Below are positions 12,163-54,110 of a DNA stretch of 64,000 bases, in pieces. The number at the start of each line of letters is the position of its first letter. Within the stretch, counting starts at the first letter, position 1. Source of the stretch: an uncultured Alphaproteobacteria bacterium. GTDB lineage: Bacteria; Pseudomonadota; Alphaproteobacteria; Rhizobiales; Xanthobacteraceae. Made by a program: the position numbers and the translations under genes. The stretch lies in assembly GCA_963781195.1 (NCBI GenBank), contig CAWAEZ010000016.1, positions 40,523 through 104,522 of the forward strand, read 5' to 3'. Below the pieces are notes generated by a model. It worked only from the letters and a program-made list of their open reading frames with translations. It was not told where the DNA came from and did no database searches.

Positions 12163-12383
12163 CGCCCGCTTCGCGACGCCTTCGTGCTCGGGCACATGGC
12201 CCACGGGCACCGGTCCCACGCGGGTAATTCCCCACGGGGCCCCACCGGCGGTGGACCTGACGCAGCCGAGTCGCCCATTCGCCAAACCTTGGCTCGTTGC
12301 TCTTCCCTTCACGCGATCCGTCAATAAGTCACCTATGATGCTGCGGCCTCCGGGATCCGGATCGCGCGTTTGGAGAATGTTCG

Positions 12384-13748
12384 TTGTCCGACCTCGAAAG
12401 AAACCGGTTCTCGGCCCGCGCCGCGCGCTACGCCCGCGTCGGTGCCAATGTCGGCGGGGTCGCCGCCCGGATTGCCGCGACCCGGCTGATGGGCGGCGAG
12501 CATGGTCGCGCCCGCGGCGCAGCCGAACTCGCCGCGGCGCTCGGCGGCCTCAAGGGTCCGATCATGAAGGTCGCCCAGCTGATGGCGACCATTCCCGACG
12601 CGCTGCCGCCGGAATACGCCGAGGAGCTCGCCAAGCTGCAGAGCGATGCGCCGCCGATGGGCTGGGCGTTCGTGAAACGGCGGATGATGGCCGAGCTCGG
12701 CGCCGACTGGCGGTCGCGGTTCGAGACCTTCGAGCACCACCCGGCGGCCGCCGCCTCGCTCGGCCAGGTGCACCGGGCGGCCTCGCTCGACGGCGAGGCG
12801 CTCGCCTGCAAACTCCAGTATCCCGACATGCAGTCGGCGGTCGAGGCCGATCTCAAGCAGCTCGAATGGCTGTTCGCCATCCATCGCCGGATGGACCCGG
12901 CGATCGACACCACCGAGATGGCCGACGAGATCGGCGCCCGCATCCGCGAGGAGCTTGATTACGAGCGCGAAGCCAAGCACGTGGCGCTGTACCGCACGAT
13001 CCTCGCCGACACCCCCGAGGTGCGCGTGCCGCGCGCCTTCCCGAAACTGTCGACCCGCCGTCTTTTGACCCTCGATTGGCTGGAGGGCGACAAGCTGCTC
13101 GTCCACAAGGGCGACGAACTCGCCGCGCGCAACCGCCTGGCGGTCGCCATGTTCAAGGCGTGGTGGCACCCCTTCAGCCGCTACGGCGTGATCCACGGTG
13201 ACCCGCACCTCGGCAACTATACCGTCTTCTTGGAGGACGGCAGCCCGCAGGGCATCAACCTGCTCGATTACGGCTGCATCCGCATCTTTCCGCCGAAATT
13301 CGTCGGCGGCGTGGTCGACCTCTATCACGGTCTGCTCGAAGGCAACCGCGACCTCGTGGTCCATGCCTACGAGACCTGGGGGTTCAAGCGCCTGTCGCGG
13401 GAGCTGGTCGACATCCTCAATATCTGGGCGCGCTTCATCTACGGGCCGCTGCTCGACGACCGCGAACGCACCATCGCCGACGGCATCAAGCCGTCCCAGT
13501 ACGGCCGCCGCGAGGCGTTCACGGTCCATCGCGCCCTCAAGGAGAAGGGCCCGGTGCGGGTGCCGCGCGAGTTCGTGTTCATGGACCGGGCCGCGGTCGG
13601 CCTCGGCGGCGTGTTCCTGCACCTCAACGCCAAGCTGAACTACCACCGGCTGTTCAACGAGGCGATCGAGCGGTTTTCGATCGACCAGGTGGCAGCACGA
13701 CAGCGGGCTGCGCTCGAGGGGGCCGGACTCGGCACTGCGCCCGGCTGA
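12384..13748 (+). CDS. ABC1/UbiB/AarF atypical kinase family protein
   Basis: 454 aa with ABC1 signatures (KVAQLMATIPDALPPEYAEEL, ASLGQVHRA, HGDPHLGN). Uses a TTG start after a GGAGA RBS. Confidence 0.85.
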   Translation: MSDLERNRFSARAARYARVGANVGGVAARIAATRLMGGEHGRARGAAELAAALGGLKGPIMKVAQLMATIPDALPPEYAEELAKLQSDAPPMGWAFVKRRMMAELGADWRSRFETFEHHPAAAASLGQVHRAASLDGEALACKLQYPDMQSAVEADLKQLEWLFAIHRRMDPAIDTTEMADEIGARIREELDYEREAKHVALYRTILADTPEVRVPRAFPKLSTRRLLTLDWLEGDKLLVHKGDELAARNRLAVAMFKAWWHPFSRYGVIHGDPHLGNYTVFLEDGSPQGINLLDYGCIRIFPPKFVGGVVDLYHGLLEGNRDLVVHAYETWGFKRLSRELVDILNIWARFIYGPLLDDRERTIADGIKPSQYGRREAFTVHRALKEKGPVRVPREFVFMDRAAVGLGGVFLHLNAKLNYHRLFNEAIERFSIDQVAARQRAALEGAGLGTAPG

Positions 13749-26072: not shown

Positions 26073-26897
26073 TCATCCGGCCGGCCGCCTGTCCCTGATG
26101 GCGTCGAGGTAGCGGGCGACGGATGCCGCGAGAATCGCCTTGCTGCCGGTCGGGATCACCCGGTCGAAATAGTGGCCGTAGATGGCCTCGAAGGCGAACG
26201 GCGAAAGCGCACCGGCAATGGCTTCGACCTCGGCCGCGCAAAGCGGGATGAAATTCGGGTAACTGCGCATGAAGCTCAGCGACTTACGGTCGGTGGCGAC
26301 GGTCGCGATATCGCCCGAGCACAATGCGCCGCGCCCTCCCGCCCCGTCCGCCCAGTGCAGCACCGTGCCGCCGGGGAAGTGTCCGCCGCAGCGAATCAAG
26401 GTCACGCCGGGCCATAACGAGAGCGTCTCGCCCTCCCATAACCGGATCGCAGGGTCGGGCCGCATGATCCAGGCGCGGTCGGCCGCGTGCAGGTGGATCG
26501 GCGCGCCGTCGAACGCCCGGCTCCATTCCACCATGGAGGTGTAGAAGTGCGGGTGCGAGACCGCGATCGCCTGGATGCCGCCCAGCGCCTTGACGAGCGT
26601 CACCGTCGCCGCATCGATCATGGAGATGCAGTCCCACAGCACGTTGCCGCCGGCGGTGCGCACCAGCAACGCGCGCTGTCCGATCGCAAAGGCGGGCTGG
26701 GATCCGATGCCGATGAGGCCGGGCTCGTATTCGCGGTAGCTGTTGAAATGGGATGCCGCGAGCGCCGGCAACGTGGTCCAGGTCTGGCCGCGCGGCGGCA
26801 CGTATTGACGCTCGTCCTCGCAGATCGGGCACCGCTCCGGCGGCGCCTCGGTGGGCGCGAATTGTGCGCCGCAGGTCGTGCAGATGAAGGCCGGCAT
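26073..26897 (-). CDS. MBL-fold metallo-hydrolase with N-terminal Cys4 zinc-ribbon
   Basis: Start at MPAFICTTCG...CPIC. Carries the AVSHPHFY metal motif. The ORF upstream of 26897 is Arg-rich and non-coding-like. Confidence 0.85.
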   Translation of the reverse strand: MPAFICTTCGAQFAPTEAPPERCPICEDERQYVPPRGQTWTTLPALAASHFNSYREYEPGLIGIGSQPAFAIGQRALLVRTAGGNVLWDCISMIDAATVTLVKALGGIQAIAVSHPHFYTSMVEWSRAFDGAPIHLHAADRAWIMRPDPAIRLWEGETLSLWPGVTLIRCGGHFPGGTVLHWADGAGGRGALCSGDIATVATDRKSLSFMRSYPNFIPLCAAEVEAIAGALSPFAFEAIYGHYFDRVIPTGSKAILAASVARYLDAIRDRRPAG

Positions 26898-26926
26898 CTC
26901 GATCTCTCCCGACGGGCCGGACCCGC

Positions 26927-27877
26927 TCAGTGCGCCCGCACCTTCCGCGTCGCGCCGCTCGCGGGCCGGTCGCCGTAGCCGCGATAGAGGTCGCCGAACT
27001 CGGCGGCGAGTTCGTAGCACAATGTCAGCTTGCCGGCGCGCGGAAGCCATTGCGCGTTGGGGAAGCCGCAGCTTTCGGCCTCGATCGTAAACGGCGCCGG
27101 CCACGCGTAGGTGTCGGCCATTTGCGCCGCCACCGTCTCCAGCACCGCCATCGCGCGCAGCCCCTGCGCAATACCTTCGAGCTTGCCTTGGGCGTCGCCA
27201 TAGACCACGTCGATCTTGGTCTTCGGCTGGTTCGGGCCGCGCAGATGCGCCTTGAGCGCGGCATCCCAGGCGTTCGAAGCCGCGGTGAAGTCCGCCGCGC
27301 AGCCGTCCTGGCGCTCCTTGGGCAGCCGGGTCTGCGCGGCAAGATGCTGGTACTTCGCCTCGCCGGTCCCGACCATCAGGCACGCGATCCGTTCGGCGCG
27401 CTCCGCACCGATGCCGTGCTCGTCGTAATACGCGATCGGATCGCCGTTCTCCTCGTTGCGGTGATCGGATAGGAACCAGCCCTTCGCCGCGTCCTGGAGC
27501 ACGCGGTCGGGAAATGCGGAGCCCATTTTGACGAGTTGGGTGACGGCGAACGAATTGGCGGCGTCTTCCCGTGTGTCGGCCGCGGGCAGCTGCATCTGCG
27601 CCGTGGCCGCGTGGGCCATCCCGTGCAGCAGCACGAACAGCGTGTTTCCGGCCATGAACTCGGCGATCACCTCACGGTATTCCGGCGAGAGGCCCTTGTA
27701 GCGCGGATACTTGCCGAGCGCCTGGGCGGCGGCGTCGATCCGGCCCTGAAACGGATCGGGCTGCGCCAAAGCCGGCTGCGCCGCGAATGTCCCGGCCGCG
27801 AATGTCCCGGCGACCGCGAGAGCCGCAAGGCACGAGGGCAGCGGATCAATTCGTCGCCGGAGCACGCTGGTTCTCAC
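26927..27877 (-). CDS. exported DUF4344-like putative metallopeptidase
   Basis: 316 aa with a signal peptide. Overall resemblance to DUF4344, but the metal motif region reads LLHGMAHAA. Confidence 0.55.
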   Translation of the reverse strand: MRTSVLRRRIDPLPSCLAALAVAGTFAAGTFAAQPALAQPDPFQGRIDAAAQALGKYPRYKGLSPEYREVIAEFMAGNTLFVLLHGMAHAATAQMQLPAADTREDAANSFAVTQLVKMGSAFPDRVLQDAAKGWFLSDHRNEENGDPIAYYDEHGIGAERAERIACLMVGTGEAKYQHLAAQTRLPKERQDGCAADFTAASNAWDAALKAHLRGPNQPKTKIDVVYGDAQGKLEGIAQGLRAMAVLETVAAQMADTYAWPAPFTIEAESCGFPNAQWLPRAGKLTLCYELAAEFGDLYRGYGDRPASGATRKVRAH

Positions 27878-28119
27878 GGGTCCACCTCATGGTCTGAACG
27901 AATCGCTGGAACGATGCAGAGAGAACATCGCCCCCGATTCGACTTTGCAACAGATGCGACCAAACCGTGAAGCATCTTAATATACAAAACCGCGGCACCG
28001 CGAGGCTCTTCGGCGATGGGCCCGGCGTCGCCGCGCCCCCCTCTGGTGACCTTGCGCGGCCGCGGCCCAGGCCGACATTCCGAGCGAAACCCGGTCCCCC
28101 CGCATGTCGTGACGGTGTC

Positions 28120-29127
28120 ATGTTGGCTCGCCAACATTCCGCAGGTCGATCGGATTTGCGCCGCTTCGCCCTGGCCCGCCGCCGGCGCCTAAGGTCGTAC
28201 GAGGGAGGGCCCCGCTTGCAGACCGCCGGCAACTCTGGAGGCTTTCTCCGCATTACTTTGGTCACCGCGGTGGTCGTCATTCTGGCGGGTGTCGGCGCGT
28301 ATCTCCTCTTCGGTGGTCCGGCTGAGAACGCGACCTCGGAGTCCGGATCGGTGCAGGTGATCGGTTCGGAATCGATGCGCCCCTCCGTCACCGCCTGCGC
28401 GGAAGACTTCATGACCCGACATCCGCAGGCCGACGTCATCATCAAGGGCGGCGGCTCGGGAGACGGCGTTGCCGCGCTGCTGCACGGGATGGTCGACATC
28501 GGCATGTCGTCGCGCGAATTGTCGGACCGCGAACACGAGTTTGCGGCGACGCGTGGGGCCCAGATCTCGGATTTCGTCCTGGCGCTGGACGGCGTCACCA
28601 TCGTCATCAACCGGGCGAACCCGATCACGGTTCTGACCCTCGCCCAGCTTCGCGACATCTTCACCGGGAAGGTCGGCAACTGGCGCGAGCTTGGAGCCGG
28701 TGACGGCGACATTCTCCCCTTCGCACGCGCGGCCGGCTCCGGCACCGCGTCGCTGTTCGCAGACCGCGTGCTGCGCGACGAAGCCTATGCCCCCTCCGCC
28801 GAGCGGCTGTCCACCAACGAAGCCATCGTTGCCGAAGTCGCCGCAAAGCCGGGCGCGATCGGCTATGCGGGCATCGGCGCGCTGCGCACCGGGGGCACCA
28901 GGATCAAGGTGGTGCCACTCGCGGTGGATTTGCAATCGCCGCCGACGACGGCCACGCCCGCGACCATCGTGTCGGGCGAGTATCCGCTGAGCCGCAAGCT
29001 CCACCTCGCCACCATGGGCCCTCCGCTCGGGACCGCCAAGGCGTTCATCGATTTCTGCCTGTCGGAAAGCGGGCAGGCCTTGTTTCAACGGGTCGGCTAT
29101 GTCCCGGCAAAATCGTCGACGCAATGA
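28120..29127 (+). CDS. membrane-anchored PstS-family (phosphate-type) substrate-binding protein
   Basis: Has a TM anchor, then VIGSESMRP..., KGGGSGDG and DIGMSSRELS, which are typical of PstS-like PBPs. The start is uncertain; the ORF opens at 27967. Confidence 0.7.
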   Translation: MLARQHSAGRSDLRRFALARRRRLRSYEGGPRLQTAGNSGGFLRITLVTAVVVILAGVGAYLLFGGPAENATSESGSVQVIGSESMRPSVTACAEDFMTRHPQADVIIKGGGSGDGVAALLHGMVDIGMSSRELSDREHEFAATRGAQISDFVLALDGVTIVINRANPITVLTLAQLRDIFTGKVGNWRELGAGDGDILPFARAAGSGTASLFADRVLRDEAYAPSAERLSTNEAIVAEVAAKPGAIGYAGIGALRTGGTRIKVVPLAVDLQSPPTTATPATIVSGEYPLSRKLHLATMGPPLGTAKAFIDFCLSESGQALFQRVGYVPAKSSTQ

Positions 29128-29224
29128 CCCCGCCCGCGAATTGGCCTTGGTCGAAAGTCAGCGTTCACGACGTGACTTTTCCCGAACCGACCCGTCGCGA
29201 GGCAAACTCGCTTTGTGCGCACCG

Positions 29225-30355
29225 ATGAAATCGGTCGCCGCGCTCACGCTGCGGTGGATCGTCCTGGCACTTCTTCTGGCGCTATCGGGGGTGCCGTCGC
29301 ACGCCCAGAGCGACGGCGGCGGTGCCCCCAAAAAACTCATCGTCGGGACCATGCGCGTGCCGCCTTTCGTGGTGCGTAGCGACGATGGACAATGGAGCGG
29401 GCTGAGCATCGAGCTGTGGAAGCAGATTGCGGCCGAGTTGAAGGTCCCCTTCGCGTTCAAGGAATACGACTACGATCTCCCCGGCATGCTGGATGCGGTC
29501 GAGCGCAACGAGGTCGACGCCGCAATCGCCGCCATTCCGATCACGGTCGAAGGGGAATCGCGGTTCGATTACTCGCACGCCTATTTCGCCGCCGGGCTCG
29601 GGATCGCCGTCCACACCGAATCCCAGGGCGGCATGTTCGGAACGCTGGCCGGCATTTTCACCCATCAGGTCCTCATTGCGACGGCGGCCCTCGTCGCCCT
29701 CCTGTTGTTCGTCGGCCTTCTGATCTGGGTGATGGAACGACGCCAGAAGGGACACTTCGATGCGCGCCCGTCGCATGGCATTGCCGACGGCATCTGGTTC
29801 GCCGCGGTGACCATGACCACCACCGGCTATGGCGACAAGGTCCCGGTCACCGCGGGCGGCCGCGTCGTCGCCATGGTCTGGATGTTCGCGAGCATCTTCC
29901 TGGTGGCGCTGTTCTCCGCAACTCTCGCCTCGTCGTTCGTGGTCGGCCGCCTCAAGACCACCATCAACGGCCCGGCCGATCTCGCGCGCGCACGCGTCGC
30001 CGGCGTCGCTGCGACGGCGGGCGAGCAATGGCTCAATGCCCAGGGATTTCGCCAGCGCAGCTACCCCTTCGTGATCCAGGCCATGAAGGCGCTGCAGCGC
30101 GGCGACGTCCAGGCGCTGGTCTACGAGAAGCCGATCCTCGGGCACATGATCAAGGAGTATGGCTGGCGCGAGCTGCAGGTCCTGCCGCACACCCTGGCGG
30201 TGCGCGACTACGCCATCGCCTTGCCCGTCAGCAGCCCGCTCAAGAAGCAGGTCAACCTGGCTCTGCTCAAGGTCGTTCAGGGCCCCGACTGGAAGGACCT
30301 CGTGCAGCACTATGTCGGCGGCAGCGACCAGATCGCGGCGGCGGAGAAACCGTGA
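29225..30355 (+). CDS. GluR0-type ligand-gated potassium channel (SBP_bac_3 domain interrupted by M1-P-M2 pore)
   Basis: Signal peptide, binding-protein lobe 1, a TM helix, the K+ filter TMTTTGYGD (29810-29836), a second TM helix, then lobe 2. Confidence 0.85.
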   Translation: MKSVAALTLRWIVLALLLALSGVPSHAQSDGGGAPKKLIVGTMRVPPFVVRSDDGQWSGLSIELWKQIAAELKVPFAFKEYDYDLPGMLDAVERNEVDAAIAAIPITVEGESRFDYSHAYFAAGLGIAVHTESQGGMFGTLAGIFTHQVLIATAALVALLLFVGLLIWVMERRQKGHFDARPSHGIADGIWFAAVTMTTTGYGDKVPVTAGGRVVAMVWMFASIFLVALFSATLASSFVVGRLKTTINGPADLARARVAGVAATAGEQWLNAQGFRQRSYPFVIQAMKALQRGDVQALVYEKPILGHMIKEYGWRELQVLPHTLAVRDYAIALPVSSPLKKQVNLALLKVVQGPDWKDLVQHYVGGSDQIAAAEKP

Positions 30356-30491
30356 CCGGCGCCGCATGGTTGGTCGTCCGCGGCGAACCTGTCGGGAGGA
30401 AGTGTTTGCTTGCTTGGCGAACAATGTCTCGGCGCAAAGCCCGATCTCACTCCCGGCGGTGATGAGTGCCTGAACGCGAGTTTTATATGCT

Positions 30492-30518
30492 GCCATCGGT
30501 CCGATCTTCTGGCGCACC
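30492..30518. repeat. 27-nt copy (2 mismatches) of synthetase coding sequence 31455-31481
   Basis: GCCATCGGTCCGATCTTCTGGCGCACC here versus GCCACCGGCCCGATCTTCTGGCGCACC at 31455-31481. It lies 18 nt beyond the stop of the fused ORF. Confidence 0.85.
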
Positions 30519-30535
30519 TATGTTAGCCTCGACCG

Positions 30536-31285
30536 CTAGCCGTTGGTGATCAGTGTCTGGACGTCACTTAGGCGGACACTTTCCCACATGGCGATCTTCA
30601 TTCCGTTTCCGAATATGATGGGTCCTCGCACGATTTCGCCGAGCTTGTCATTTAGCGTTCCGTAAATGTCGCCCTGGATGCGCTCGATAAGATTGGGTTC
30701 TCTCGCCAACGTATGAAACAGATACATATGCGGCGCCTTCAATTTCCAGATATGCCCTGCTATGTCAACGACACTGTTATCAATTCCTTGCATGTAGAAC
30801 TTGGCAATAGATTCGTGATAGACTTCGCGAGGCACTTGCTCGCGATGATATCGCCCCTTCTCAACGAATTTTATAGAGACTTGAGCCTGCCGCGTATTGA
30901 TTTGCCACGAATGAACCAATGAATTTCGAAAATCTTGAATAAAAAACTGTTGTTCTTTGGAGAACGTGGACAGAAAATTTCTTACACCAATAGCTAATTG
31001 CTCTATTTGTCCGCAGTAATGAACCAGAATTGGAGAGCCAATATTCTCCGAGGATCGTTTGAGGGTTGGAAGAACCCGCAGCTCCCCATCAAGGGTGTCG
31101 TACAACGAACTGATCCAAACCACTCCTAGCTTGTTTTTAAGCTCCTGCTCGCGCTCGAATTGCTCGTCGAAGAGATATACGCCCCAGTTGCGAAGCGAGT
31201 GGTGCTGATCTGCGAAGAATTGGAATATTCGTCCGCAGGTCTCCTGATGGTCAAATAGTGTTTCGGTCGATCTAACCTTCTTCAC
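30536..31285 (-). other. AT-rich foreign-looking coding module (~245 codons) with R-x4-H motif, fused in frame to the synthetase
   Basis: There is an abrupt composition drop relative to both flanks. The ORF is open and protein-like (…FIQDFRNSLVHSWQIN…), with no stop separating it from the upstream synthetase. Confidence 0.7.
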
Positions 31286-33166
31286 CCCGTGTCCCTTCAG
31301 CGCACCGGCGATCTCGTCGAGGATCGCGGGATCGTCGATGGTGGCCGGCATGGTCCAGGCCTCGCCGTCGGCGATCTTCTTGATGGTGCCGCGCAGGATC
31401 TTGCCCGAGCGGGTCTTGGGCAGACGGGCCACCGTGATCGCAATCTTGAACGCCGCCACCGGCCCGATCTTCTGGCGCACCAGGCCGATGATCTCGTTCT
31501 CGATCTCGTTGGGCGGACGGTCGACGCCCGCCTTGAGGACGATGAAACCGCACGGCACCTCGCCCTTGAGGTCGTCCTTGATGCCGAGCACCGCGCATTC
31601 GGCGACCGCGGGATGCGAGGCGAGCACCTCCTCGATGCCGCCGGTCGAGAGCCGGTGGCCGGCGACGTTGATGATGTCGTCGGTGCGCCCCATGATGTAG
31701 AGGTAGCCGTCTTCGTCGGTGAAGCCGGCATCCGCCGTCTTATAGTAGCCGGGGAATTCGCGCAGATAGCTCTCGCGCATGCGCTCGTCATGCTGCCACA
31801 GGGTGGGCAGGCATCCCGGCGGCAGCGGCAGCTTCACCACGATCGAGCCCATCTTGTTGCGCGCGACCTCGTGGGCGCCTTCATCGACGATGCGCACGTC
31901 ATAGCCCGGCATCGCCACGGTGGGCGAGCCGTGCTTGACCGGCAGGCGGCCGAGCCCGATGGGATTGCCGGCGATCGCCCAGCCGGTTTCGGTCTGCCAC
32001 CAATGGTCGATCACCGGGACCTTCAGGATGTCCTCGGCCCACTTCACCGTGTCGGGGTCGGCGCGCTCGCCGGCGAGGAACAGGGTGCGGAATTTCGGCA
32101 TCGGATAGCGCGGCAGCAGCGTGGCCTGCGGATCTTCCTTCTTGATGGCGCGAAACGCGGTCGGCGCGGTGAACATGGCGACCGCACCATGCTCGGCGAT
32201 GACCCGCCAGAAGGCGCCGGCGTCGGGCGTGCCGACCGGCTTGCCTTCGTAGAGGATGGTGGTGCAGCCGTGAAATAGCGGCGCGTAGACGATGTAGCTG
32301 TGGCCGACCACCCAGCCGACGTCGGATGCCGACCACCACACCTCGCCGGGCGCGATGCCGTAGAGGTGCGCCATCGACCATTGCAGCGCGACCATGTGGC
32401 CGCCGTTGTCGCGCACCACGCCTTTGGGTTTTCCGGTCGTGCCGGACGTGTAGAGGATGTAGAGCGGATCGGTGGCGGCGACCGCGACACAGTCGGCGGT
32501 GCGGCCGTTCCGGATCGCGGCGGCGCGCAGGCTCGCCCAGTCATGGTCGCGGCCGGCGACGAGATCCGCCGTGGCCTGCGGGCGCTGCAGGATCAGGCAC
32601 GCCTGCGGCTTCGCCGACGCGATCGCGATCGCCTCGTCGAGCAACGGCTTGTATTTTACGACGCGGCCGGGCTCGATGCCGCAACTCGCCGACAGGATCA
32701 CCTTGGGCTTGGCGTCGTCGAGCCTCGTCGCGAGCTCGGTGGCGGCGAAGCCGCCGAAAACCACCGAATGGATCGCCCCGATGCGGGCGCAGGCGAGCAT
32801 CGCGATCAGCGCCTCCGGCACCATCGGCATATAGAGGATGACGCGGTCGCCCCGCTCGACCCCGAGATCGGCGAGCACGCCGGCGAGCGTCTTCACCTCG
32901 GCGAGCAGCTCGGCATAGCTCAGCGTGCGCTTCGCTCCGGCCACCGGCGAGTCATAGATGACGGCGGCCTGACTGCCGCGCCCGCGCAGGACATGGCGGT
33001 CGACCGCGTTGAAGCAGGTGTTGCAGGTCGCGCCCACATACCAGCGGCCATAGACGCCCGCGGAAGGATCGAAGATCTTGGCGGGCTTGCTCGTACCAGT
33101 CGATGGCATCCGCCGCCTCGCCCCAGAACCCGACGGGATCGCGCAGCGCGCGCTGGTAGACGTCAT
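30536..33166 (-). CDS. Acs/PrpE-family acyl-CoA synthetase body, with a 5' frameshift and a 3' in-frame foreign extension (possible pseudogene/fusion)
   Basis: AMP-binding motifs are present (YTSGTTGKPKG, YKTADAG, PKTRSGKI). The conserved N-terminus (SRYHDVYQRALRDPVGFWGEAADAIDWYEQ) lies in ORF 32952-33302 in another frame. Confidence 0.75.
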   Translation of the reverse strand: MTSTSARCAIPSGSGARRRMPSTGTSKPAKIFDPSAGVYGRWYVGATCNTCFNAVDRHVLRGRGSQAAVIYDSPVAGAKRTLSYAELLAEVKTLAGVLADLGVERGDRVILYMPMVPEALIAMLACARIGAIHSVVFGGFAATELATRLDDAKPKVILSASCGIEPGRVVKYKPLLDEAIAIASAKPQACLILQRPQATADLVAGRDHDWASLRAAAIRNGRTADCVAVAATDPLYILYTSGTTGKPKGVVRDNGGHMVALQWSMAHLYGIAPGEVWWSASDVGWVVGHSYIVYAPLFHGCTTILYEGKPVGTPDAGAFWRVIAEHGAVAMFTAPTAFRAIKKEDPQATLLPRYPMPKFRTLFLAGERADPDTVKWAEDILKVPVIDHWWQTETGWAIAGNPIGLGRLPVKHGSPTVAMPGYDVRIVDEGAHEVARNKMGSIVVKLPLPPGCLPTLWQHDERMRESYLREFPGYYKTADAGFTDEDGYLYIMGRTDDIINVAGHRLSTGGIEEVLASHPAVAECAVLGIKDDLKGEVPCGFIVLKAGVDRPPNEIENEIIGLVRQKIGPVAAFKIAITVARLPKTRSGKILRGTIKKIADGEAWTMPATIDDPAILDEIAGALKGHGVKKVRSTETLFDHQETCGRIFQFFADQHHSLRNWGVYLFDEQFEREQELKNKLGVVWISSLYDTLDGELRVLPTLKRSSENIGSPILVHYCGQIEQLAIGVRNFLSTFSKEQQFFIQDFRNSLVHSWQINTRQAQVSIKFVEKGRYHREQVPREVYHESIAKFYMQGIDNSVVDIAGHIWKLKAPHMYLFHTLAREPNLIERIQGDIYGTLNDKLGEIVRGPIIFGNGMKIAMWESVRLSDVQTLITNG
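31455..31481. repeat. synthetase-internal copy of the 27-nt direct repeat
   Basis: See 30492-30518. On the minus strand it encodes LVRQKIGPVAA. Confidence 0.85.
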
Positions 33167-33309
33167 GGTAGCGGCTGGTGCCGACGCGCGGCTCGAGCGC
33201 CGAAGTGCTCAATCGGACCTCCCTCACATGTCTTCGCCACTGCGCCGGCCCGCCCGCAGGCGCCCGGCGCAGGGCTTTTTTAACGTAGGCCAGCCGCGAC
33301 ATCCCGGCT

Positions 33310-34604: not shown

Positions 34605-34766
34605 GTGTCGCGAGGTTCCGAAAACTTATCGAGTTTCGGGTAAGATCACCGGCAACCAATCCGTGGGGTGGCGGAGCGGACCACGCGTCGTGCCGGACCG
34701 GCCACGTCGCGGCCGCCCGTGCCACCCTACCAAAGCGCGCAATGCGCCGTTCCGCGGGGATTCGCC

Positions 34767-36393
34767 ATGGCAGGGATGTACGAGCTCGACCTCGACCGCA
34801 ACGCCGCCAATTTTCAGCCGCTGACGCCGCTGAGCTTCCTCGAGCGCGCCGCGGGGGTGTTTCCCGACCGCACCGCCGTGGTGCATGGCGCGGGACGATG
34901 GACCTATGCGGAACTCTATAGCCCGCACCCGCCGCCTCGCCTCGGCACTCACCAAGGTCGGCATCGGCCACGGCGACACCGTGTCGGTCATGCTGGCAAA
35001 CACCCCGGCGATGATCGAAGCCCATTACGGGGTGCCGATGACCGGCGCGGTGCTCAACACCCTCAACACCCGGCTCGATGCGGCGATCCTCGCCTTCACG
35101 CTCGACCATGCCGAAGCCAAGGTGCTCATCACCGACCGCGAATACGCCAAGGTGATCAAGGAAGCGCTGACCCTCGCCAAGGTGAAGCCGCTGGTCATCG
35201 ACTACGACGACCCCGAATATTCCGGCCCCGGCGGCAACCTCGGCACCATCGAATACGAGGAGTTTCTCGCCAAGGGCGATCCGGACTTCGCCTGGAAGAT
35301 GCCTCCCGACGAATGGGACGCCATCTGCCTCAACTACACGTCGGGCACCACCGGCGATCCCAAGGGCGTGGTGTATCACCACCGCGGCGCCTACCTGCTC
35401 GCGGTCGGCAACGTGCTCACCTGCAGCATGGGCAAGCACCCGGTCTATTTGTGGACGCTGCCCATGTTCCACTGCAACGGCTGGTGCTTCCCATGGACCA
35501 TCTCGGTGGTCGCCGGCGTCCATGTGTGCCTGCGCCAGGTGCGGGCGGCGCCGATCTACGACGCCATCGCCCGCCACAAGGTCACGCATCTGTGCGGCGC
35601 ACCGATCGTGATGTCGACGCTGCTCAACGCTCTCGAGGCCGAGAAGCAGCCGCTGCCGCACATGATCGAGTTCGTCACCGCCGCCGCGCCGCCGCCGGAA
35701 GCCGTGCTCGACGCCATGCGGGCGGCCGGCTTCAACGTCACCCATGTGTACGGCCTGACCGAAACCTACGGGCCGGCCGCCGTCAACGAATGGCATACCG
35801 GATGGAGCGACCTTCCCGCCGCCGACCAGGCGACGAAGAAGGCGCGCCAGGGCGTCGCCTATCCGGTGCTGCAGGGCCTCGACGTCATCGATCCCGACAC
35901 CATGGTCCCGGTGCCCGCCGACGGCCAGACGCTCGGCGAGGTGATGTTCCGCGGCAACGTGGTGATGCGCGGCTATCTCAAGAACAAGGCTTCGACGGAA
36001 AAGGCCTTCGCCGGCGGCTGGTTTCATTCCGGCGACCTCGGCGTCAAGCATCCTGACAACTACATCCAGCTCAAGGACCGATCCAAGGACATCATCATCT
36101 CCGGCGGCGAGAACATCTCGTCGATCGAGGTGGAGGATGCGCTCTACAAGCATCCCGCCGTGCAGGCCGCCGCCGTCGTCGCCAAGCCCGACGATAAATG
36201 GGGCGAGACGCCGTGCGCCTTCATCGAGCTCAAGCCCGGCACGAACGCCACCGCGTCCGAGCTGCTCGCCTTCTGCCGCGAGCATCTCGCCTCCTACAAA
36301 TGCCCGCGCCATCTCGTCTTCACCGAGCTGCCGAAGACCTCGACCGGGAAGATCCAGAAGTTCAAGCTGCGGGAAATGGCGAAGGAGGCGTGA
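34767..36393 (+). CDS. medium/long-chain acyl-CoA synthetase (AMP-binding), apparent 1-nt frameshift near 34915-34922
   Basis: The N-terminus MAGMYELDLDRNAANFQPLTPLSFLERAAGVFPDRTAVVHGAGRWTYAELY is in one frame. ARTRRLASALTKVGIGHGD... through the end is in the frame of ORF 34885-36393. Motifs YTSGTTGDPKG and PKTSTGKIQK are present. Confidence 0.8.
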
Positions 36394-42459: not shown

Positions 42460-42535
42460 GCCGCAATAGCTCAGTCGGTAGAGCACATCATTCGTAATGA
42501 TGGGGTCGGGGGTTCGAATCCCTCTTGCGGCACCA
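42460..42535 (+). tRNA. tRNA-Thr (anticodon CGU)
   Basis: 76 nt. Acceptor GCCGCAA/TTGCGGC, D-arm AGCTCAGTCGGTAGAGC, anticodon loop TTCGTAA, T-arm GGGGGTTCGAATCCCTC, and an encoded CCA. Confidence 0.9.
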
Positions 42536-44986: not shown

Positions 44987-45613
44987 CTAGTGCCGCGGTG
45001 GGGACCACGGAAGCGGTGGCGACCTACTCAAGAAATACGACAAGAACACCTGCTCACCTTCTTTGAAGGCGCAGACATACGTGATGGGAGTCGCTGGATG
45101 TACACCGAGAGCCAGCCAAAGAACAAGATTTGCGTCGTTGCGGTCCTGAAACCAAACGCCGCTTTGGGCGCCCAGCTTTTTGCTTATTTCTGAATGCCAA
45201 AAGGCAATGTCGTTGTAGCTATGGTAGAAAAGAGCTTCTATGACTTCCCCGTTGCGATATTGCTGATCGCCGAGATTGTCTTCGACACGGAACTTCACTC
45301 CGTACGGATAAGTGGGACCTACACGCGCAGCCACCAAGGTCATTTCTCCAACGAACCCCACTTTGAGCCGCGAGCAAGTCTTTGTGCCCGAAGGCAATTC
45401 AAACTCTTCGCCGTCCGGTGCGGTCGGCGACCACCAGTGGACGACGGCGTCTTGTACGAATCTTGGTCGAGAAGAATCCGAAAGATCGTTCATTGCATAA
45501 GCCCTTTTACTAGGCCCGGTCGCGCAAAATAGAACAATCAAGGCTACCCAGCGCGCAGAATGAGTTGACCCCTTCGCGAAACCCATCACCTTCGCTGGTG
45601 CGCTAAAAATCAC
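44987..45613 (-). CDS. secreted hypothetical protein
   Basis: 208-aa ORF in an AT-richer region with a signal-like start (ARWVALIVLFCATGPSKRAYA). No family recognised. Confidence 0.5.
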   Translation of the reverse strand: MIFSAPAKVMGFAKGSTHSARWVALIVLFCATGPSKRAYAMNDLSDSSRPRFVQDAVVHWWSPTAPDGEEFELPSGTKTCSRLKVGFVGEMTLVAARVGPTYPYGVKFRVEDNLGDQQYRNGEVIEALFYHSYNDIAFWHSEISKKLGAQSGVWFQDRNDANLVLWLALGVHPATPITYVCAFKEGEQVFLSYFLSRSPPLPWSPPRH

Positions 45614-45924
45614 CGATCGCGTTCCCTGTCCCTCGCTCTCAACAACTCGTTCGGTTTTAAGTCAATTTGAGATGCCTTGGAGAGCCACCGATCACGCTCA
45701 TGGTTGTACAACGGGCGAGCGTCACTCGGAGTAGGTCGAAAGGAATATCGTCAGCGCCAGCGCGGCTATCGCGACTGCCGCGGGCCGCAATGAACCACCA
45801 TCCGCTTCTCGTTCGCTGCATCAATTGGAGAATAACCCCTCAAGCGCCCTCGGCGATGCCGGCGCCGGAGGGCGCCGGGCGAAGATGTCGAGTTGGCGGG
45901 GATCGATCCGCAGCGACCGAAGCT

Positions 45925-47139
45925 TCACTTATCCAGATTCTCGGCCTTCAGCCACTCCGAGACGATGCGGAATACCTGCGCATTGTTCGTATCCGCCATC
46001 GGATGGTGCGTATTTCCGGACACGCCGGCCTCCGGGAGAACCACGTTCTTGACGTTGCCACCATACTTGGCGGCTACCGTGGCAAAACGCTTGTACGCTT
46101 CGACCCAGACGCGCCTGGTTTCCGGCGGGGTGCCGGCGTTTGCGGGGTCGAGCGCCTTGGGAATGAAGTCGCCCCAGATCAGCAGAATGGGATGTCGGGT
46201 GAGCTTCATGAATTCCTCCAGAGGGATTTCAGTCCCTGCGGGGACGAGCACACCATCAGCGCGCGGTATCGGGGGCGGCAGCTCCCCCACCGGGAAAACG
46301 GGAAAGGCGCTCGGTTCCCAGCCGATTTGGCCGGCAAGCGTGTTGGTCTTCCTGGGAACCAATAAACCGCGAGAATGACTCGAAGAATGGGTGTGAAGGA
46401 TCGCTCCTTTGCCGCGCTCCCGATAAAGCTCTTCGAGCAGAACGGCTAATGCCTCGCTCTCAATCTCGACGTTTTTCGGCGTGTTGAACTCGACATACTG
46501 ATTTCGGAGATACTGGTCCAACACCTTCGGATCTCGTGAGAAGGCCACCCCCGGAAAAAACTGCATGGCAGATTTCGGGGTATTCGGCGCCCACAATCCG
46601 ATGCGGTTCGTAAAAACGAACCGTGCCGAGAAGGTGTTGTTTACGGGACTCCACGTGTATTCCGAGCAGGCTTTGCCTGCTCGTCCGGTCCACGGCAAGT
46701 CGACCAGGTACACAGGATATTTTTCGCCCAGAAGTAGGCTCTGAAATCCGGGTTTACCGTCGAACGTCGTCTGGTACGTCCTGGTGCTGGAGCCATGGAC
46801 AAGCACCATCGGGTGCTCGCGCGCTCCAGTCGGGATGAACCACTCGACGAACCCGTGATCGCAGAGTTGAAAATTGGTCGGATCGTCGGGCATCGGTACT
46901 GCCGTCCCCCCGAATGCCCGCGCGCCCATGGACTCTATTTCGAGAACCTTGGGCTTACTGTCTTCCTGAGCAAAGGTGTCGGCACTTCTCAGCAGCGCCA
47001 ACACGAGTGCGACCGAAAAATAGCAAACGGTCCGCAAGAGTCGCCGGTCACGCACGCGCTGGCTCGAATGTGAAGTCCTGACTTCATGCAAATTGCACTT
47101 TGTGTCGCTGCATGGCCTTGGGCGTACTAATGTCTGCAT
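45925..47139 (-). CDS. secreted alpha/beta-fold hydrolase, paralog family of 7-1182
   Basis: Start at MQTLVRP; a later start is possible. Has PMVLVHGSS..T.DG and a C-terminal GNTHHPM. Confidence 0.7.
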   Translation of the reverse strand: MQTLVRPRPCSDTKCNLHEVRTSHSSQRVRDRRLLRTVCYFSVALVLALLRSADTFAQEDSKPKVLEIESMGARAFGGTAVPMPDDPTNFQLCDHGFVEWFIPTGAREHPMVLVHGSSTRTYQTTFDGKPGFQSLLLGEKYPVYLVDLPWTGRAGKACSEYTWSPVNNTFSARFVFTNRIGLWAPNTPKSAMQFFPGVAFSRDPKVLDQYLRNQYVEFNTPKNVEIESEALAVLLEELYRERGKGAILHTHSSSHSRGLLVPRKTNTLAGQIGWEPSAFPVFPVGELPPPIPRADGVLVPAGTEIPLEEFMKLTRHPILLIWGDFIPKALDPANAGTPPETRRVWVEAYKRFATVAAKYGGNVKNVVLPEAGVSGNTHHPMADTNNAQVFRIVSEWLKAENLDK

Positions 47140-47277
47140 GTTTCGCTTCTCCCTGATGGCGGCTTCGTGGCCCATTGGACCCCGCCGCCTCATCACCATC
47201 GTACACAGGCGAGCGCATGCAGCACAGTGAGCAGATGCCGCCCATCGATCCTCGTGGCATTGCGGCGTGAGATTCAA

Positions 47278-47574
47278 TCAGGCTGGTGGAGGCGCTTTCT
47301 TCCGCTTTGCGGGACGTGGCGCCCTCTTGGACGATCCGGGCGGGCGCACATATGGCGGCGGCGTGTGCCCCTCATATCTTTCGAGGACGCTCTCATACTT
47401 CACGCCCTGCTGACGCTCTGCGGGCGACATGGTGAGGCAGCCTGGCGCGGTCAGCATGACGCGGGGAGAACGCGCGCGGCATTGCGGGCACGCGGACGGC
47501 AGATCGCATTCCGCCATCGGTCGCAACTGTGTGAACGGCCCGCACTTCTTGCACATGTACTCGTACGTCGGCAT
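47278..47574 (-). CDS. FmdB-family zinc-ribbon protein
   Basis: MPTYEYMCKKCGPF...CPQC is the FmdB signature. Has a Lys/Pro-rich tail. Confidence 0.7.
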   Translation of the reverse strand: MPTYEYMCKKCGPFTQLRPMAECDLPSACPQCRARSPRVMLTAPGCLTMSPAERQQGVKYESVLERYEGHTPPPYVRPPGSSKRAPRPAKRKKAPPPA

Positions 47575-47639
47575 GTACCACCTATATCCGGGCAAGACAC
47601 AGCTGCGGCGGACCACTCCGTCGCGGTCAACTATACCAG

Positions 47640-47830
47640 CTGACGGACTGGGTTGTGAACGTCGTCGGTCACTTTCTGGCATGCCATCGTCGGTCGAATA
47701 CATCCGCGCCGGCAAGCTGCGTGCCCTAGCTGTGACCACGAAGACGCGCTCCCGAGGCTTTGACCGAGGTCCCAACGGCGGGTGATTCCGGGCCCGGCTT
47801 CGAGGCCAAGCCTCGATTTCTCCTGACGCA
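47640..47830 (+). pseudogene. internal fragment of a Bug/TctC-family gene
   Basis: Has …MPSSVEYIRAGKLRALAVTT.TRS, then EALTEVPTAGDSGPGFEA in a shifted frame. Confidence 0.4.
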
Positions 47831-48444
47831 GTAGCCGGCTCGAAAAAGTTTCACTTTATCGGCGATGGACGGATGATCGGCGCCAAGTGACTTACCACCC
47901 GCCACGGGCCAGGCGGCGCTGGCGCGCGGCGATGTAAAAAGTGTGCCCGCAATCCACAGGCCGGCACCTGAAAGATGCCAGAAACGGAACATTATCCGGA
48001 CGTCACCCGATGGCTGATTTTGCCGCGCAAGCAGGCCTGCTCCCTCATGGGCGGGGTAGGGCCGCGTAAGCAGGACGGCCCCAGGATGGCTGGCACCCTG
48101 GGGCACCCCGCAGCTCCGGAAATTGGTAGCACCGGCTCCAGAGGAGGATGCGGTTTGCAACGCCCTGACGAGATCCCGGTCCAGCGTGCGTGCAGTGATA
48201 CGTGATGAGCTCTGCTCTCTGCCCGTCAGCGGTGTCGTGTGCTGGCTGTTCCCCCCGACAGCGAGATGGGCGCCAGGCCGCCTCGCAAACTTCTCTAAAA
48301 TTGACGTTTTTCTTGTATGACAACGCTGCCGGATTTTGTCCAAGTGCGGCAGCAGCCGAAGTGATCGTGGGTGTTCCCGGCGCCGCAGCCCTGACGCTCT
48401 CCGGCGTCGTCGTTAGCAATCTTGTGTTTTGAGGGCTACGAACA

Positions 48445-48642
48445 GTGAACCACAAAAAATTCGATATCGCCCCTTTTGAACGGAAGCCCGGCGTCTGGCG
48501 CGCGAAAATAACTCGAGAAGATGGTTCTCCCATCGAACATGACGGGCTCAAGCGCCCTGAATTCGAGACCTCCGATGCGACAACCGCCGAGGAGGCCGAG
48601 CAGCTGGCTATCGATCAGATCGACGCAAAATGGTTTACTTGA
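48445..48642 (+). CDS. small hypothetical protein (65 aa)
   Basis: Balanced composition (FERKPGVWRAKITREDGSPIEHDG…AEEAEQLAIDQIDAKW). Confidence 0.45.
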   Translation: MNHKKFDIAPFERKPGVWRAKITREDGSPIEHDGLKRPEFETSDATTAEEAEQLAIDQIDAKWFT

Positions 48643-48705
48643 GGGGTCAGCCGCGGCGTGCGTGCTGGGGAGATCGACTGTCGAGCAGCGGAGGAGGATG
48701 GGCGC

Positions 48706-49077
48706 ATGAGGACTGGGTTCGTGCGATTCGCCAACATCGTCGCTGAGGCCTCAGGCTACCCTTCAGTGTTTTTCGTGGCTGTCTTGATCGTGGTCATATG
48801 GTTGACCACAGGGCCCATCTTCCACTTTTCGGACACTTGGCAGCTCGTCATGAACACCCTGACGAGCGTCATCACCTTCCTCATGGTCTTCTTGATCCAG
48901 ACCTCCCAAAACCGGGACAGCGCGGCGCTTCAGGCGAAGCTCGACGAGCTGATTAGAGTGGGAACCGCCCAAAACCTGTTTGTTGGACTGGAGCACTTGT
49001 CGCCCGAGGAGATCGCGGAGATACGGCGCGAACTGCACGGGCATTTGGAGCGTCGGCGAAAGCCGGCGGAGGGGTGA
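48706..49077 (+). CDS. low-affinity iron permease family protein
   Basis: Start at MRTGFVRFANIVAE. Has two TM helices and FLIQTSQNRDSAALQAKLDELI, typical of PF04120. Confidence 0.75.
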   Translation: MRTGFVRFANIVAEASGYPSVFFVAVLIVVIWLTTGPIFHFSDTWQLVMNTLTSVITFLMVFLIQTSQNRDSAALQAKLDELIRVGTAQNLFVGLEHLSPEEIAEIRRELHGHLERRRKPAEG

Positions 49078-49317
49078 GGCAGCGCGGTATGCCGCGCGGC
49101 TCCGCTTAGATCAAGGAGGTGGAGGCTTGACGCCCTGCCCATGCCCTTCGAGAGGCGGGACACTTTCGATTTTCCAGTTGCTGCACTCAAGGTGCGATGG
49201 GCGCAGCGCGGCCACGAGTTCGGAGCATCCATCGGACGTTGTCGATCGAGGAGGCTGGAGCGGTTTTGGGGCGTGTCGGTTAAGGCCCCAGTCGCCCTGG
49301 CGGGGAGCCATCGCCTA

Positions 49318-49539
49318 TCATGTGGTAGCGTACGATTCAAGAAATCCACAAGACGTGCATCGATAGGTCGTGACAGCCAGCTTTTGCTTGCCCTTGAACG
49401 TCACGCCTCCGAGCCAGTTCTTTTCCGGCGCACCCTCGATCCAACTCGGGACAAGGACGCCTCCGTAAGTGGCATCGGGAACAAATCCTAGTTCCATGCC
49501 ATGTTGGCATTTTGGGCATTTGGGGCTGCGCTGCAGCAT
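49318..49539 (-). CDS. small zinc-ribbon protein
   Basis: 73 aa with CPKC near the N-terminus and CTSC near the C-terminus. Confidence 0.5.
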   Translation of the reverse strand: MLQRSPKCPKCQHGMELGFVPDATYGGVLVPSWIEGAPEKNWLGGVTFKGKQKLAVTTYRCTSCGFLESYATT

Positions 49540-49794
49540 GGGTGCTGATCCTCAATTTTTCTCAGCGTAGGACGCGTCCACAACAAGCTCGAGCGCACCG
49601 AAGGCGACAGTCTACTCGTCGCGGTTACCTCCGGGTTGCAATCTCCTGTTTCGCTGCGCTTCGCTTCCGTTCACGCCGGTTCGACAGCGTGAAATACCTC
49701 GGTCTGTCACGGCCTTGGCGGTAGCGGTACAACACGTCACTCTGGCGTATTTGGGCTAACATTAGCCCACCGTTGAGACGACGCGAATTCGCGC

Positions 49795-49839
49795 TTCGTA
49801 ATGATGGGGTCGGGGGTTCGAATCCCTCTTGCGGCACCA
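49795..49839 (+). other. tRNA-Thr 3' fragment (anticodon loop to CCA), att-like
   Basis: Identical to 42491-42535. The upstream sequence is unrelated to the tRNA 5' half. Confidence 0.9.
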
Positions 49840-50275
49840 ATGACTTAGTTGTTCGGCCCGTTGGGTGCCGGATCGCACCTGAGACATGGGTGACAATCGC
49901 TCGGGGCCGGTAGCACGTGCCTTGCCTGCGATCGGCCGACGCGGTCTGCTTGAACAGCGGAACACACTGGCGCGAAGGTCTTGGATAGCGTTTCCCTGTT
50001 GCTCAGGTGCCGAATGCAGCCGGTGAAGCCCCGCAACCCGCGGCGTAGGCCAACTGCCTGTCGGCAACCCTAAATTTCCTCCGCGTTCCACCGCGGCCAC
50101 GTGCCCTTCTCCACTGACCATCCCCGATCACGCTCCTGGAGCACCAACCTTCTGGCACCTGCCTGTCCGCAGCACCTCGCTCAGATTTTCGCGCGCGGCC
50201 CGCTGTGAGTCTCCCAGCCGCGATCTGCCCAGGCTAAACGCAAACCAGGCGCGTGCGCGCAGTTTCACGGCTCAA
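49795..50275 (+). repeat. direct repeat copy 2 (includes a ~190-bp extra block about 50040-50230)
   Basis: See 42491-42800. Confidence 0.85.
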
Positions 50276-50322
50276 CTCTGAACGGGAAAGAAGCCCGCGC
50301 ATGAACCAGACAAAAATGCATT

Positions 50323-51600: not shown

Positions 51601-51610
51601 GCGGCCGCTG

Positions 51611-52528
51611 CTACGCGGCCATTTGAAGCGTGCGGCCGAGATCGAATTCACGTCGGTACCTGGCGAAGGTCCGCTCGCCGTGCCAAAGCCTCATGATCGC
51701 CCCCTCCCCGATCGCTTGGGCGCGGCGGGGATCTTCCCTTACCAGGGGGCGAAGGACCTCGCGGTTCCACGCTTCGGAGTGCTTCACGTCGAGCACGGCA
51801 TGAACGGCGAAGTAGTGTCGCTGTTTCGCAGAGATCCCGAGGCGTTTCAGCCCAGCGTTGACGTAGCCCGCGCGGGTCGGCGCCGTCATCTCGATGACGC
51901 CGAGCGCACCTATCGAATGGAACGCATACCGTCTGTGTCGGGCGAGCGCTATCATCGTGTTACCCAGCGCGAGCGCCTCCGGCACCACCGTTTCCGCCGT
52001 CGGCGAAAGTTCGAAATGATCGGAAAGTCGCGCCAGCATCGGGCCGTGCATACCCTTGCCGAAACCGCGCCCCATTTCATCCCAAAAGTTACGCGCCATT
52101 TCGAGCTTGGCTTGCGTACCGACTTTGATCTGAGTCAGAGCCAGCAAATCCTCAAAACCGGCTTCTCCCGCGACTTCCTGCAGCATGAACCAAGTCATCT
52201 GCTCCAGGTTCGCGCGCTCGGCCAGCCACGGAAACAGCGGATCGCCCTGACCGGGCCCGCGCTCCTTCAGGCGCTCGAACCAGTCGATAAAGCCCGTTTC
52301 ATCGGACGGAATGGCTTGCGTCATCGGCGTTATCCACTTTCGCATCCGTTCGATGAATGCGATTTCCGCGGCCGACACCCGCGCCTCTTTGAGCAGTTCG
52401 TCGGCCGCCGCCTCTTCCGGAAGACGGGGGTTGAAACGGTTGGCGTTGTAATTGGCGAGACCGATTTGGAATTCGGCGAAGCGCGGGCCGGTCAATTCAG
52501 CACGCCACCTCGTCCAGTCACGACTCAT
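51611..52528 (-). CDS. heme-oxygenase-like fold, iron-containing redox enzyme family protein (HDO-type)
   Basis: ATG at 52528 follows an AGGAG RBS. FWDEMGRGFGKGMHGPML and HYFAVHAVLDVKHSE resemble the paired E..H / D..H metal motifs of PF14518-type proteins. Confidence 0.7.
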   Translation of the reverse strand: MSRDWTRWRAELTGPRFAEFQIGLANYNANRFNPRLPEEAAADELLKEARVSAAEIAFIERMRKWITPMTQAIPSDETGFIDWFERLKERGPGQGDPLFPWLAERANLEQMTWFMLQEVAGEAGFEDLLALTQIKVGTQAKLEMARNFWDEMGRGFGKGMHGPMLARLSDHFELSPTAETVVPEALALGNTMIALARHRRYAFHSIGALGVIEMTAPTRAGYVNAGLKRLGISAKQRHYFAVHAVLDVKHSEAWNREVLRPLVREDPRRAQAIGEGAIMRLWHGERTFARYRREFDLGRTLQMAA

Positions 52529-52539
52529 GATCAGTCTCC

Positions 52540-53556: not shown

Positions 53557-53699
53557 TTGAATGGGACCGCAGCTTTCAACCTCCTTTAAACGGCGCCGGT
53601 TGGGGAAGGTTCCACGGGTTCAAATTCGCCAGGGAACCGTGGTTCTTCCGGGCGCCGCGTGATCTTGCGTTCGGCTCGGCCGGTGCTTAGCATTCCTGC

Positions 53700-54071: not shown

Positions 54072-54110
54072 GAGCGCTCTATCCTCTGAACGCCCGAAAG
54101 GAAGTGGGTC

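Follow-up and report, generated by a model that had tools for sequence, protein, structure and literature searches.

Proteins of the HEPN superfamily are recognized by an Rx4-6H motif in which the arginine is followed by N, D or H, and by a second acidic residue that typically forms part of an Ex3[KR] motif in helix 2; in the Csx1 branch of the superfamily a β-hairpin directly follows the Rx4-6H motif and an insert lies between helices 2 and 3 (PMC3710099). The Rx4-6H motif is placed where a core helix of an all-α bundle gives way to the next loop. The described systems that come closest to the gene reported here are the CARF-HEPN proteins Csx1 and Csm6, whose HEPN domains carry R-[N/D/H]-x3-H at the end of a helix, with a β-hairpin next and helices inserted before the motif helix; the abortive infection (Abi) proteins Abi2/AbiD/AbiF and AbiV, which have an RNxxxH sequence and are encoded by lone genes with no obvious partner, AT-rich relative to their surroundings and found in accessory or mobile contexts; the HepT/MntA (HEPN-MNT) and RnlA-type toxin-antitoxin systems, with a small helical protein and a predicted Rx4H ribonuclease (RNase) site; and the C6orf70/DUF4209 HEPN family, whose members are often fused to TPR repeats. 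The gene in question, called the module below, lies on the minus strand of a 64,000-nucleotide (nt) stretch of contig CAWAEZ010000016.1 (hereafter the window) from an uncultured alphaproteobacterium of the Xanthobacteraceae, where it is joined in frame to the 3' end of a prpE-type propionate-CoA ligase gene. It shares the features just listed, although TPR repeats occur only in two of its relatives, P0168 and P0172. The module is a horizontally acquired, independent, protein-coding gene of a rare, undescribed family of about 210–250 amino acids (aa) and, to judge by alignment with its closest DNA relative, its fusion to prpE is the product of a 22-nt deletion that took the prpE stop codon and the spacer behind it. 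We favor, with moderate confidence, the overall reading in which this acquired gene encodes a HEPN-like RNase, probably a toxin or Abi-type effector, that became attached to prpE by that deletion.

The fused gene is a single open reading frame (ORF) of 876 codons at 30536..33166. Its codons 1–627 encode an AMP-binding acyl-CoA synthetase for which the best models are NF007815 and TIGR02316 (propionate-CoA ligase), and the match of ORF residues 27–623 to NF007815 reaches model position 627 of 629, which places the end of the enzyme at ...ALKGHG, where a preliminary description of this DNA had also put it. Beyond that point the frame runs on for 249 codons (31285..30539; about 245 had been estimated) to a TAG at 30538–30536. 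This extension had been called strikingly AT-rich, and a windowed check of guanine-plus-cytosine content (GC) and of GC at third codon positions (GC3) bears that out: its GC is 47.0% and its GC3 54%, against 68.1% and 90% for prpE, and it is the lowest-GC 750-nt stretch of the window, about 4.9 standard deviations under the mean. As had also been noticed, no ATG lies near the junction (its first ~165 codons have none), and the sole start candidate is the GTG at 31285. The extension was described as protein-like, and it is under purifying selection, with a ratio of nonsynonymous to synonymous substitution rates of 0.076 against the copy on L007, a 2,250-bp metagenome contig that is its closest DNA relative.

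Homologs of the module are few and stand mostly alone. Among 5.8 billion proteins the only close relatives are P0001, of 246 aa and 50% identical to the module protein, and P0002, a 176-aa fragment that is 62% identical. P0001 has its own ATG; its gene follows that of an ABC-transporter ATPase on contig L001 and has 46% GC within surroundings of 65%. P0002 begins MKLAKIRPMQLDHQETC where the window protein reads V/M-KKVRSTETLFDHQETC, and the two N-termini are equally long; GTG 31285 therefore aligns exactly with the P0002 start. When 1.84 billion cluster representatives (50% identity) were searched exhaustively with HMMER, 128 family members were returned at E of 0.001 or better, most of them stand-alone proteins of 200–230 aa; in P0135, P0146, P0168 and P0172 the family domain is fused to other N-terminal regions. 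The hosts at the family loci include Aminicenantes, Verrucomicrobiaceae, Sphingomonas, Marinomonas and Longimicrobiales, with three further metagenome contigs. Wherever enough flanking DNA is available (L001, L004, L007, L009 from Verrucomicrobiaceae and L011 from Marinomonas) the homologs are single-gene low-GC islets, GC falling from 42% to 31% in Marinomonas, from 64% to 50% in the verrucomicrobium and from 63% to 51% at L004. Their neighbors vary by locus: an IS4-type transposase, a WYL-WCX regulator with RHS fragments, a Replic_Relax gene with a primase zinc ribbon, or plain metabolic genes. The three close homologs gave no match to the contigs of 185,579 genome representatives.

Two further observations concern members of the family. 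An antisense ORF of 57–108 codons recurs within the module gene (window 30713–30922, plus strand; L007 760–1008; L004 6642–6950; L009 8110–8430; L010 431–757); the window copy occupies the codon-aligned antisense frame, which only sense TTA, CTA or TCA codons can close, and the recurrent ORF is probably no more than a side effect of it. P0168 (651 aa) and P0172 (587 aa) consist of an unrelated N-terminal region with an R-D-x3-H-G-H motif of its own, the TPR repeats, and a C-terminal family domain in which R-x4-H is degenerate (ARTLTL and YRQLTS), so that each may pair an active with an inactive domain. The idea that their N-terminal region is a second copy of the family domain was rejected, hhalign aligning only the 10-residue motif at a probability of 0.5%.

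The sequence features of the family are those of HEPN proteins. The peptide FIQDFRNSLVHSW, in which the preliminary description saw an Arg-Asn-x3-His arrangement, is present in the extension (R120 at 30928–30926, H125 at 30913–30911), and in an alignment of 70 full-length members (A2) R-x4-H defines the family: R120 is found in 70/70 and H125 in 69/70, and W34, L49, D63, V124 and H125 are each conserved in at least 90%. The residue after R120 is N in 39 members, D in 20 and H in 5 (64 of the 70); the window protein has RNSLVH. It retains all the near-invariant residues of the family. The two additional RN dipeptides that had been pointed out do exist (R32N33 and R103N104) but are not conserved, and the real second motif is E46-x-E48-L-[R/K]50-N51-K52, ELKNK in the window, with E46 in 57/70 members, E48 in 58/70, L49 in 65/70, R or K at position 50 in 68/70 (K, as in the window, in 9) and N51 in 60/70. 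The Ex3[KR] pattern thus occurs twice, as E46x3[R/K]50 and as E48x3K52, at the start of predicted helix 47–70. An AlphaFold2 model built from A2 has a predicted local distance difference test (pLDDT) value of 91.4 and a predicted template-modeling score of 0.89 (an earlier model from 3 sequences, with pLDDT 61, was not used). It contains helices at 13–39, 47–70, 72–82, 85–105 and 110–124, a β-hairpin at 135–152, another four helices and, at the C-terminus, a small β element; R-x4-H is at the C-terminal end of helix 110–124, followed by a loop and then the hairpin, and extra helices lie between helix 2 and the motif helix. As modeled, the family carries all of the HEPN hallmarks given above, the Csx1 variant features included.

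Profile searches point, more weakly, in the same direction. Six of the 70 members match the PADLOC model CARF_m10--CARF_HEPN, none with an E-value better than 0.001; no other model is matched by more than one member. The family consensus matches it at E=6e-6 over consensus positions 91–204 and model positions 380–466 of 476, that is, across the motif and at the C-terminal (HEPN) end of the model. The only Pfam match on the motif is to DUF4209 (consensus 114–130). Taken together, the motifs and weak profile matches suggest that the module encodes a lone HEPN protein of Csx1-like structural flavor, which would make it a metal-independent RNase, and we consider that it probably belongs to the HEPN superfamily.

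A number of results weigh against that assignment. The window protein itself has no match in Pfam, NCBIfam, PHROG or PADLOC, and none of the 70 members matches a Pfam HEPN family. The E=6e-6 comes from an artificial consensus, the best real member reaching only E=0.001, so the CARF_HEPN match is below an acceptable level for membership; unlike Csx1 and Csm6, moreover, the module has neither a CARF sensor domain nor a CRISPR context. The DUF4209 match is sub-threshold (E=0.13, not significant), and there is no similarity to that family over the rest of the protein. Unlike the Abi proteins, neither the window protein nor the 70 members match Abi2 or other Abi models, HEPN_AbiV included, in Pfam or PADLOC. 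A profile search of PDB sequences found no solved HEPN structure, only noise (a designed repeat protein and LmuA, E=0.37), and Foldseek searches of PDB and BFVD gave no neighbor at E<=0.001 and listed no HEPN protein, Csx1 and Csm6 included; the best E-values were 0.33 (PDB) and 0.15 (BFVD), with template-modeling (TM) scores below 0.25 for all top-ranked matches. The PDB holds many HEPN structures. Foldseek performs poorly, however, with helical bundles that are small and divergent, and the missing neighbor therefore lowers the standing of the HEPN claim but stops short of refuting it. Thus, of the original proposal of a HEPN/Abi2-type active site, the hallmarks and a weak CARF-HEPN match stand, and the Pfam HEPN or Abi2 match and the structural neighbor are missing.

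The rival that survives best accepts a real acquired gene but denies that it is a HEPN RNase, R-x4-H having arisen by convergence in a helical regulator, nucleic-acid binder or immunity protein. The absence of structural neighbors in PDB and BFVD in spite of a pLDDT of 91 and the lack of a Pfam HEPN match speak for it, and an RNase toxin without a partner would need some other control. We regard it as unlikely, though deserving of attention: four independent HEPN hallmarks occur together in the family, and the weak matches recur with a single model, a CARF-HEPN one.

How the module came to be fused is read from L007. Over window 31394..30570, from ~110 nt before the end of prpE through the junction and along the module, L007 (304..1151) is colinear and 75% identical. 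The L007 junction is ...aaggggcatc-gggagaTAG-ccagagactcgaaagcg-GTGaaa..., so that L007 retains the '..gggagaTAG' end seen in the intact prpE of another relative, contig L003, then a 17-nt spacer and then the module GTG; the window has ...aagggacacggg-GTGaag..., which is 22 nt shorter. Homology to the window breaks off at 31286 in L002 (a contig colinear with the window) and at 31294 in L003. The stop and spacer of L007, and the 22 nt missing from the window, therefore indicate that the module originally lay behind the prpE stop and that a small deletion came later. It had been proposed that a horizontally acquired gene landed on the synthetase stop and removed it; the gene is indeed foreign, but as aligned the stop was lost in a separate and later step. 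The counterweight is that this ancestral junction is inferred from one contig, itself a degraded copy: the prpE part of L007 is a truncated tail only, and its module is frameshifted.

Orthologous synthetases agree with this account of the junction. Proteins P0003–P0122, the best 120 relatives, are 81–93% identical to the window prpE product over its last 239 residues (their names are propionyl-CoA synthetase in JGI records, with some Xanthobacteraceae or Pseudolabrys proteins at NCBI), and they stop 3–5 residues past the junction, with C-termini such as ...ALKGHGVGG, ...ALKEHGVGR, ...ALKGKGVGA and TKGVGAGKP; from these the window enzyme lacks only its last 2–3 codons and stop. Such an alignment had been suggested as a check on the extension, and the orthologues do not share it. 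The closest PrpE relative, P0004, has a 75-aa tail of different sequence that runs through ordinary intergenic DNA, and was dismissed. It comes from L002 (ENA contig_59104), in which many genes, prpE among them, are in fragments, suggesting an indel-rich long-read assembly, and for this reason the P0004 extension is not to be trusted.

The prpE gene is also damaged at its other end, as the preliminary description had claimed. Its N-terminal ~40 residues (..YHDVYQRALRDPVGFWGEAADAIDWYEQ) are in another frame, in ORF 32952..33302, and the cause is an extra A at 33087/33088 (gagcaAgcccgcc) whose removal gives a 643-aa protein from TTG 33212. Repaired in this way, PrpE matches NF007815 from position 2 (31 without repair) to 627 of 629, scoring 741 bits in place of 706; this is under the curated cut-off of 955, as its TIGR02316 score of 699 is under the cut-off of 827, and the host enzyme is PrpE-like, not a certified equivalog. 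As read, translation begun at the native start terminates at 32952, and prpE may already be dead. The adjacent acyl-CoA synthetase gene (about 34700–36393, plus strand) has a like lesion, an extra A at 34920 (ctctatAgcccgcacc). Both insertions are of a single A, each disrupts the 5' part of one of these neighboring synthetase genes, the two are no more than 1.9 kb apart, and both stand immediately 5' of GCCCGC: gcaAgcccgcc (33087–33088, minus strand) and tatAgcccgcacc (34920, plus strand). No frame breaks accompany the other 22 occurrences of AGCCCGC in the window, and a GC3 frame survey of the whole 64 kb found no breaks besides these two, neither in a G run; three of its five frame-switch candidates were simply adjacent genes. 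The two extra As may be real mutations or rare assembly errors.

These findings bear on whether PrpE and a HEPN-like domain could be a true, selected chimera acting as one polypeptide, for example with the synthetase holding a toxin inert or regulating it. The frame is open across a junction that falls at the very end of the enzyme fold, the module retains all its conserved residues, and four relatives show that the family domain can follow N-terminal regions of other kinds. The window is, however, the only place with this fusion: it is found in none of the best 120 PrpE relatives, and in 0 of the 128 module relatives is the domain joined to a synthetase. In addition, a stop and a spacer separate the two genes in the closest relative of the locus, prpE is 5' frameshifted as read, and a random deletion lands in frame with a chance of about 1 in 3. 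The real chimeric protein that the preliminary description offered as an alternative is thus very improbable, and the chimera is most likely a deletion accident, not a designed or evolved two-domain enzyme. Slightly less probable still is an assembly artefact in which a surplus G in cacGGGGtga hides CAC GGG TGA, a ...GHG end whose stop overlaps the module GTG (GTGA): the junction does lie in a 4-G run, two gene-breaking single-base insertions (33087/8 and 34920) lie within 1.9 kb of each other and GTGA overlaps of that kind are common in coupled genes, but those are the only frame breaks in 64 kb and neither is in a G run, the 22-nt difference from L007 is impossible as a base-calling error, and the gene would still be foreign and abut prpE, so that only the word 'fused' would change.

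Coordinates of the features of the locus are collected in Table 1.

Table 1. Features of the prpE–module locus, in window coordinates
Feature	Position	Strand	Basis
prpE-type propionate-CoA ligase gene	31286..33212	-	NCBIfam matches; orthologues P0003–P0122; colinearity with L002 to 31286
prpE limits: TTG 33212 start after GGGAGG Shine-Dalgarno; final 2–3 native codons and stop gone	31286..33212	-	
+1 frameshift (extra A) at codon ~42 of prpE	33087..33088	-	two-frame reading; model match of repaired protein
Fusion junction ggg/GTG; 22 nt fewer than L007 ('..gggagaTAG' prpE end plus 17-nt spacer)	31283..31288	-	four-way DNA alignment
Acquired AT-rich module gene: GTG start, 249 codons, TAG stop	30536..31285	-	homologs P0001, P0002, P0123; 128 family representatives
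R120-N-S-L-V-H125, the family R-[N/D/H]-x3-H motif	30911..30928	-	column counts; predicted secondary structure
E46-Q-E48-L-K50-N51-K52, second conserved motif (Ex3[KR] type), start of helix 47–70	31130..31150	-	column counts
Distal 179-bp segment, from module stop to convergent channel gene	30357..30535	-	without synteny to L002 or L003
30-nt copy (27/30) of prpE codons VRQKIGPVAA, 17 nt past module stop	30489..30518	-	repeat family D2
Parent copy of the 30-nt repeat, within prpE	31452..31481	-	
Convergent downstream gene, ion-channel/solute-binding fusion; synteny with relatives restarts here	29099..30355	+	L002 alignment

In the overall reading that we favor, the ancestral module lay co-oriented with prpE, 17 nt past its stop, and would have been transcribed by read-through from it; no promoter-like site was found between the two genes, and transcription of the ancestral module was presumably from prpE. 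The deletion then took out the final codons of prpE together with its stop and the spacer, bringing the module GTG into frame after ...GHG. With prpE 5' frameshifted as read, efficient production of a fused protein is unlikely, and translation of the module would then have to begin internally, at GTG 31285, where the Shine-Dalgarno-like sequence, AAGGGA, is weak. Because the fused frame relies on a frameshifted prpE and the GTG on so weak a site, expression of the module in the window is doubtful. The predicted chemistry would be metal-independent endoribonucleolytic cleavage by H125, aided by R120, N121 and the upstream glutamates (following PMC3710099), with the active site, by analogy with other HEPN proteins, at a dimer interface. 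No partner gene is conserved, which suggests that control would be intrinsic or post-translational.

By analogy the module is most probably a toxin, abortive-infection or addiction-type accessory gene: it is lone, AT-rich and patchy across phyla, some copies are near mobile genes, and the spot that it occupies holds a toxin-antitoxin pair elsewhere. Other observations count against such a role, which is argued here from analogy. No family copies were found in IMG/VR, 50,697 phage records or 72,556 plasmids, in which the module is unlike Abi2/AbiD/AbiF and AbiV. Nor is a conserved partner (antitoxin or immunity) gene present at L001, L004, L007, L008, L009, L010, L011 or L013, and the 179 bp after the window module contain no credible ORF, hence no adjoining antitoxin gene; unlike HepT/MntA and RnlA-type systems, there is no nucleotidyltransferase or antitoxin gene beside the module in the window or at the loci of these eight relatives.

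The surroundings of the module show that the stretch behind prpE is a variable spot with small toxin-type cargo that differs by strain, since L003 holds a Gp49/HTH_37 (HigBA-like) toxin-antitoxin pair (1243–1961, between prpE and DUF4344) where the window holds the module. Elsewhere, 20 kb of the window are colinear with L002, the 239 C-terminal residues of PrpE being 93% identical. Gene order in L002 is prpE, DUF4344, Lactamase_B, channel, PBP, and in the window prpE, module, channel, PBP, DUF4344 (26930..27886), a local rearrangement (window 26076–30356, L002 10892–16418) in which DUF4344 has moved behind the channel/PBP pair. The L002 Lactamase_B gene (12170–12928) has no counterpart in this part of the window, and window 30356..29235 aligns with L002 13323..14441. 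At this spot 929 bp (31285..30357) are unique to the window, the last 179 bp of them beyond the module.

Attempts to derive this 179-bp segment from a decayed prpE 3' end or from the flanks of L007, L001, L002 or L003 failed: only the 30-nt repeat of a prpE stretch (Table 1) beat shuffled sequences, with an alignment score of 45 (shuffles 17±2, maximum 28), and no other local alignment rose above shuffles. Weaker similarity at the distal repeat runs on to 30471, 48 nt matching L003 prpE at 79%. The two repeat copies bracket 963 bp of prpE tail and module. Other hallmarks of a site-specific integrative element are absent, in that there is no recombinase gene and no prpE sequence past the distal repeat. 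The repeat may be the relic of a Campbell-type insertion (of a circularized prpE tail plus module), a duplication remnant or a templated repair filler. A prpE tail attached to the module on L007 and a prpE-derived repeat on the far side of the module in the window raise the idea of a new clade of lone HEPN-like effectors that moves between distant phyla as single-gene AT-rich islets and in this Xanthobacteraceae-like lineage carries part of the prpE 3' end along, as a homologous anchor or minimal attachment site for re-insertion behind prpE, which we offer as a speculation with little probability behind it. Elsewhere in the window, ~2.5 kb downstream of a tRNA gene (42460–42532), ~10 kb of lower-GC DNA (about 45000–55000; 55–62% against 65–69%) with few high-GC3 ORFs may be a genomic island.

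The chimera itself says little about acyl-CoA synthetases, being most likely an accident in a possibly dead gene, although the locus is a clean example of a small deletion that fuses an acquired gene to a resident one. The main yield is the gene family, which at 128 clusters (50% identity) among 1.84 billion representatives is in no Pfam, NCBIfam or PHROG model and combines a confident fold that has no Foldseek neighbor with a full HEPN RNase sequence signature; the novelty is in this undescribed family, a probable new stand-alone HEPN branch, and not in the fusion. On the improbable re-insertion idea, the module would be a one-gene hitch-hiker aimed at the end of a housekeeping gene, whose transcription it would borrow. 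Should the RNase and toxin roles be confirmed, the family would constitute a new lone HEPN branch related to the effector half of the CRISPR ancillary nucleases, and a candidate single-gene defense or addiction element.

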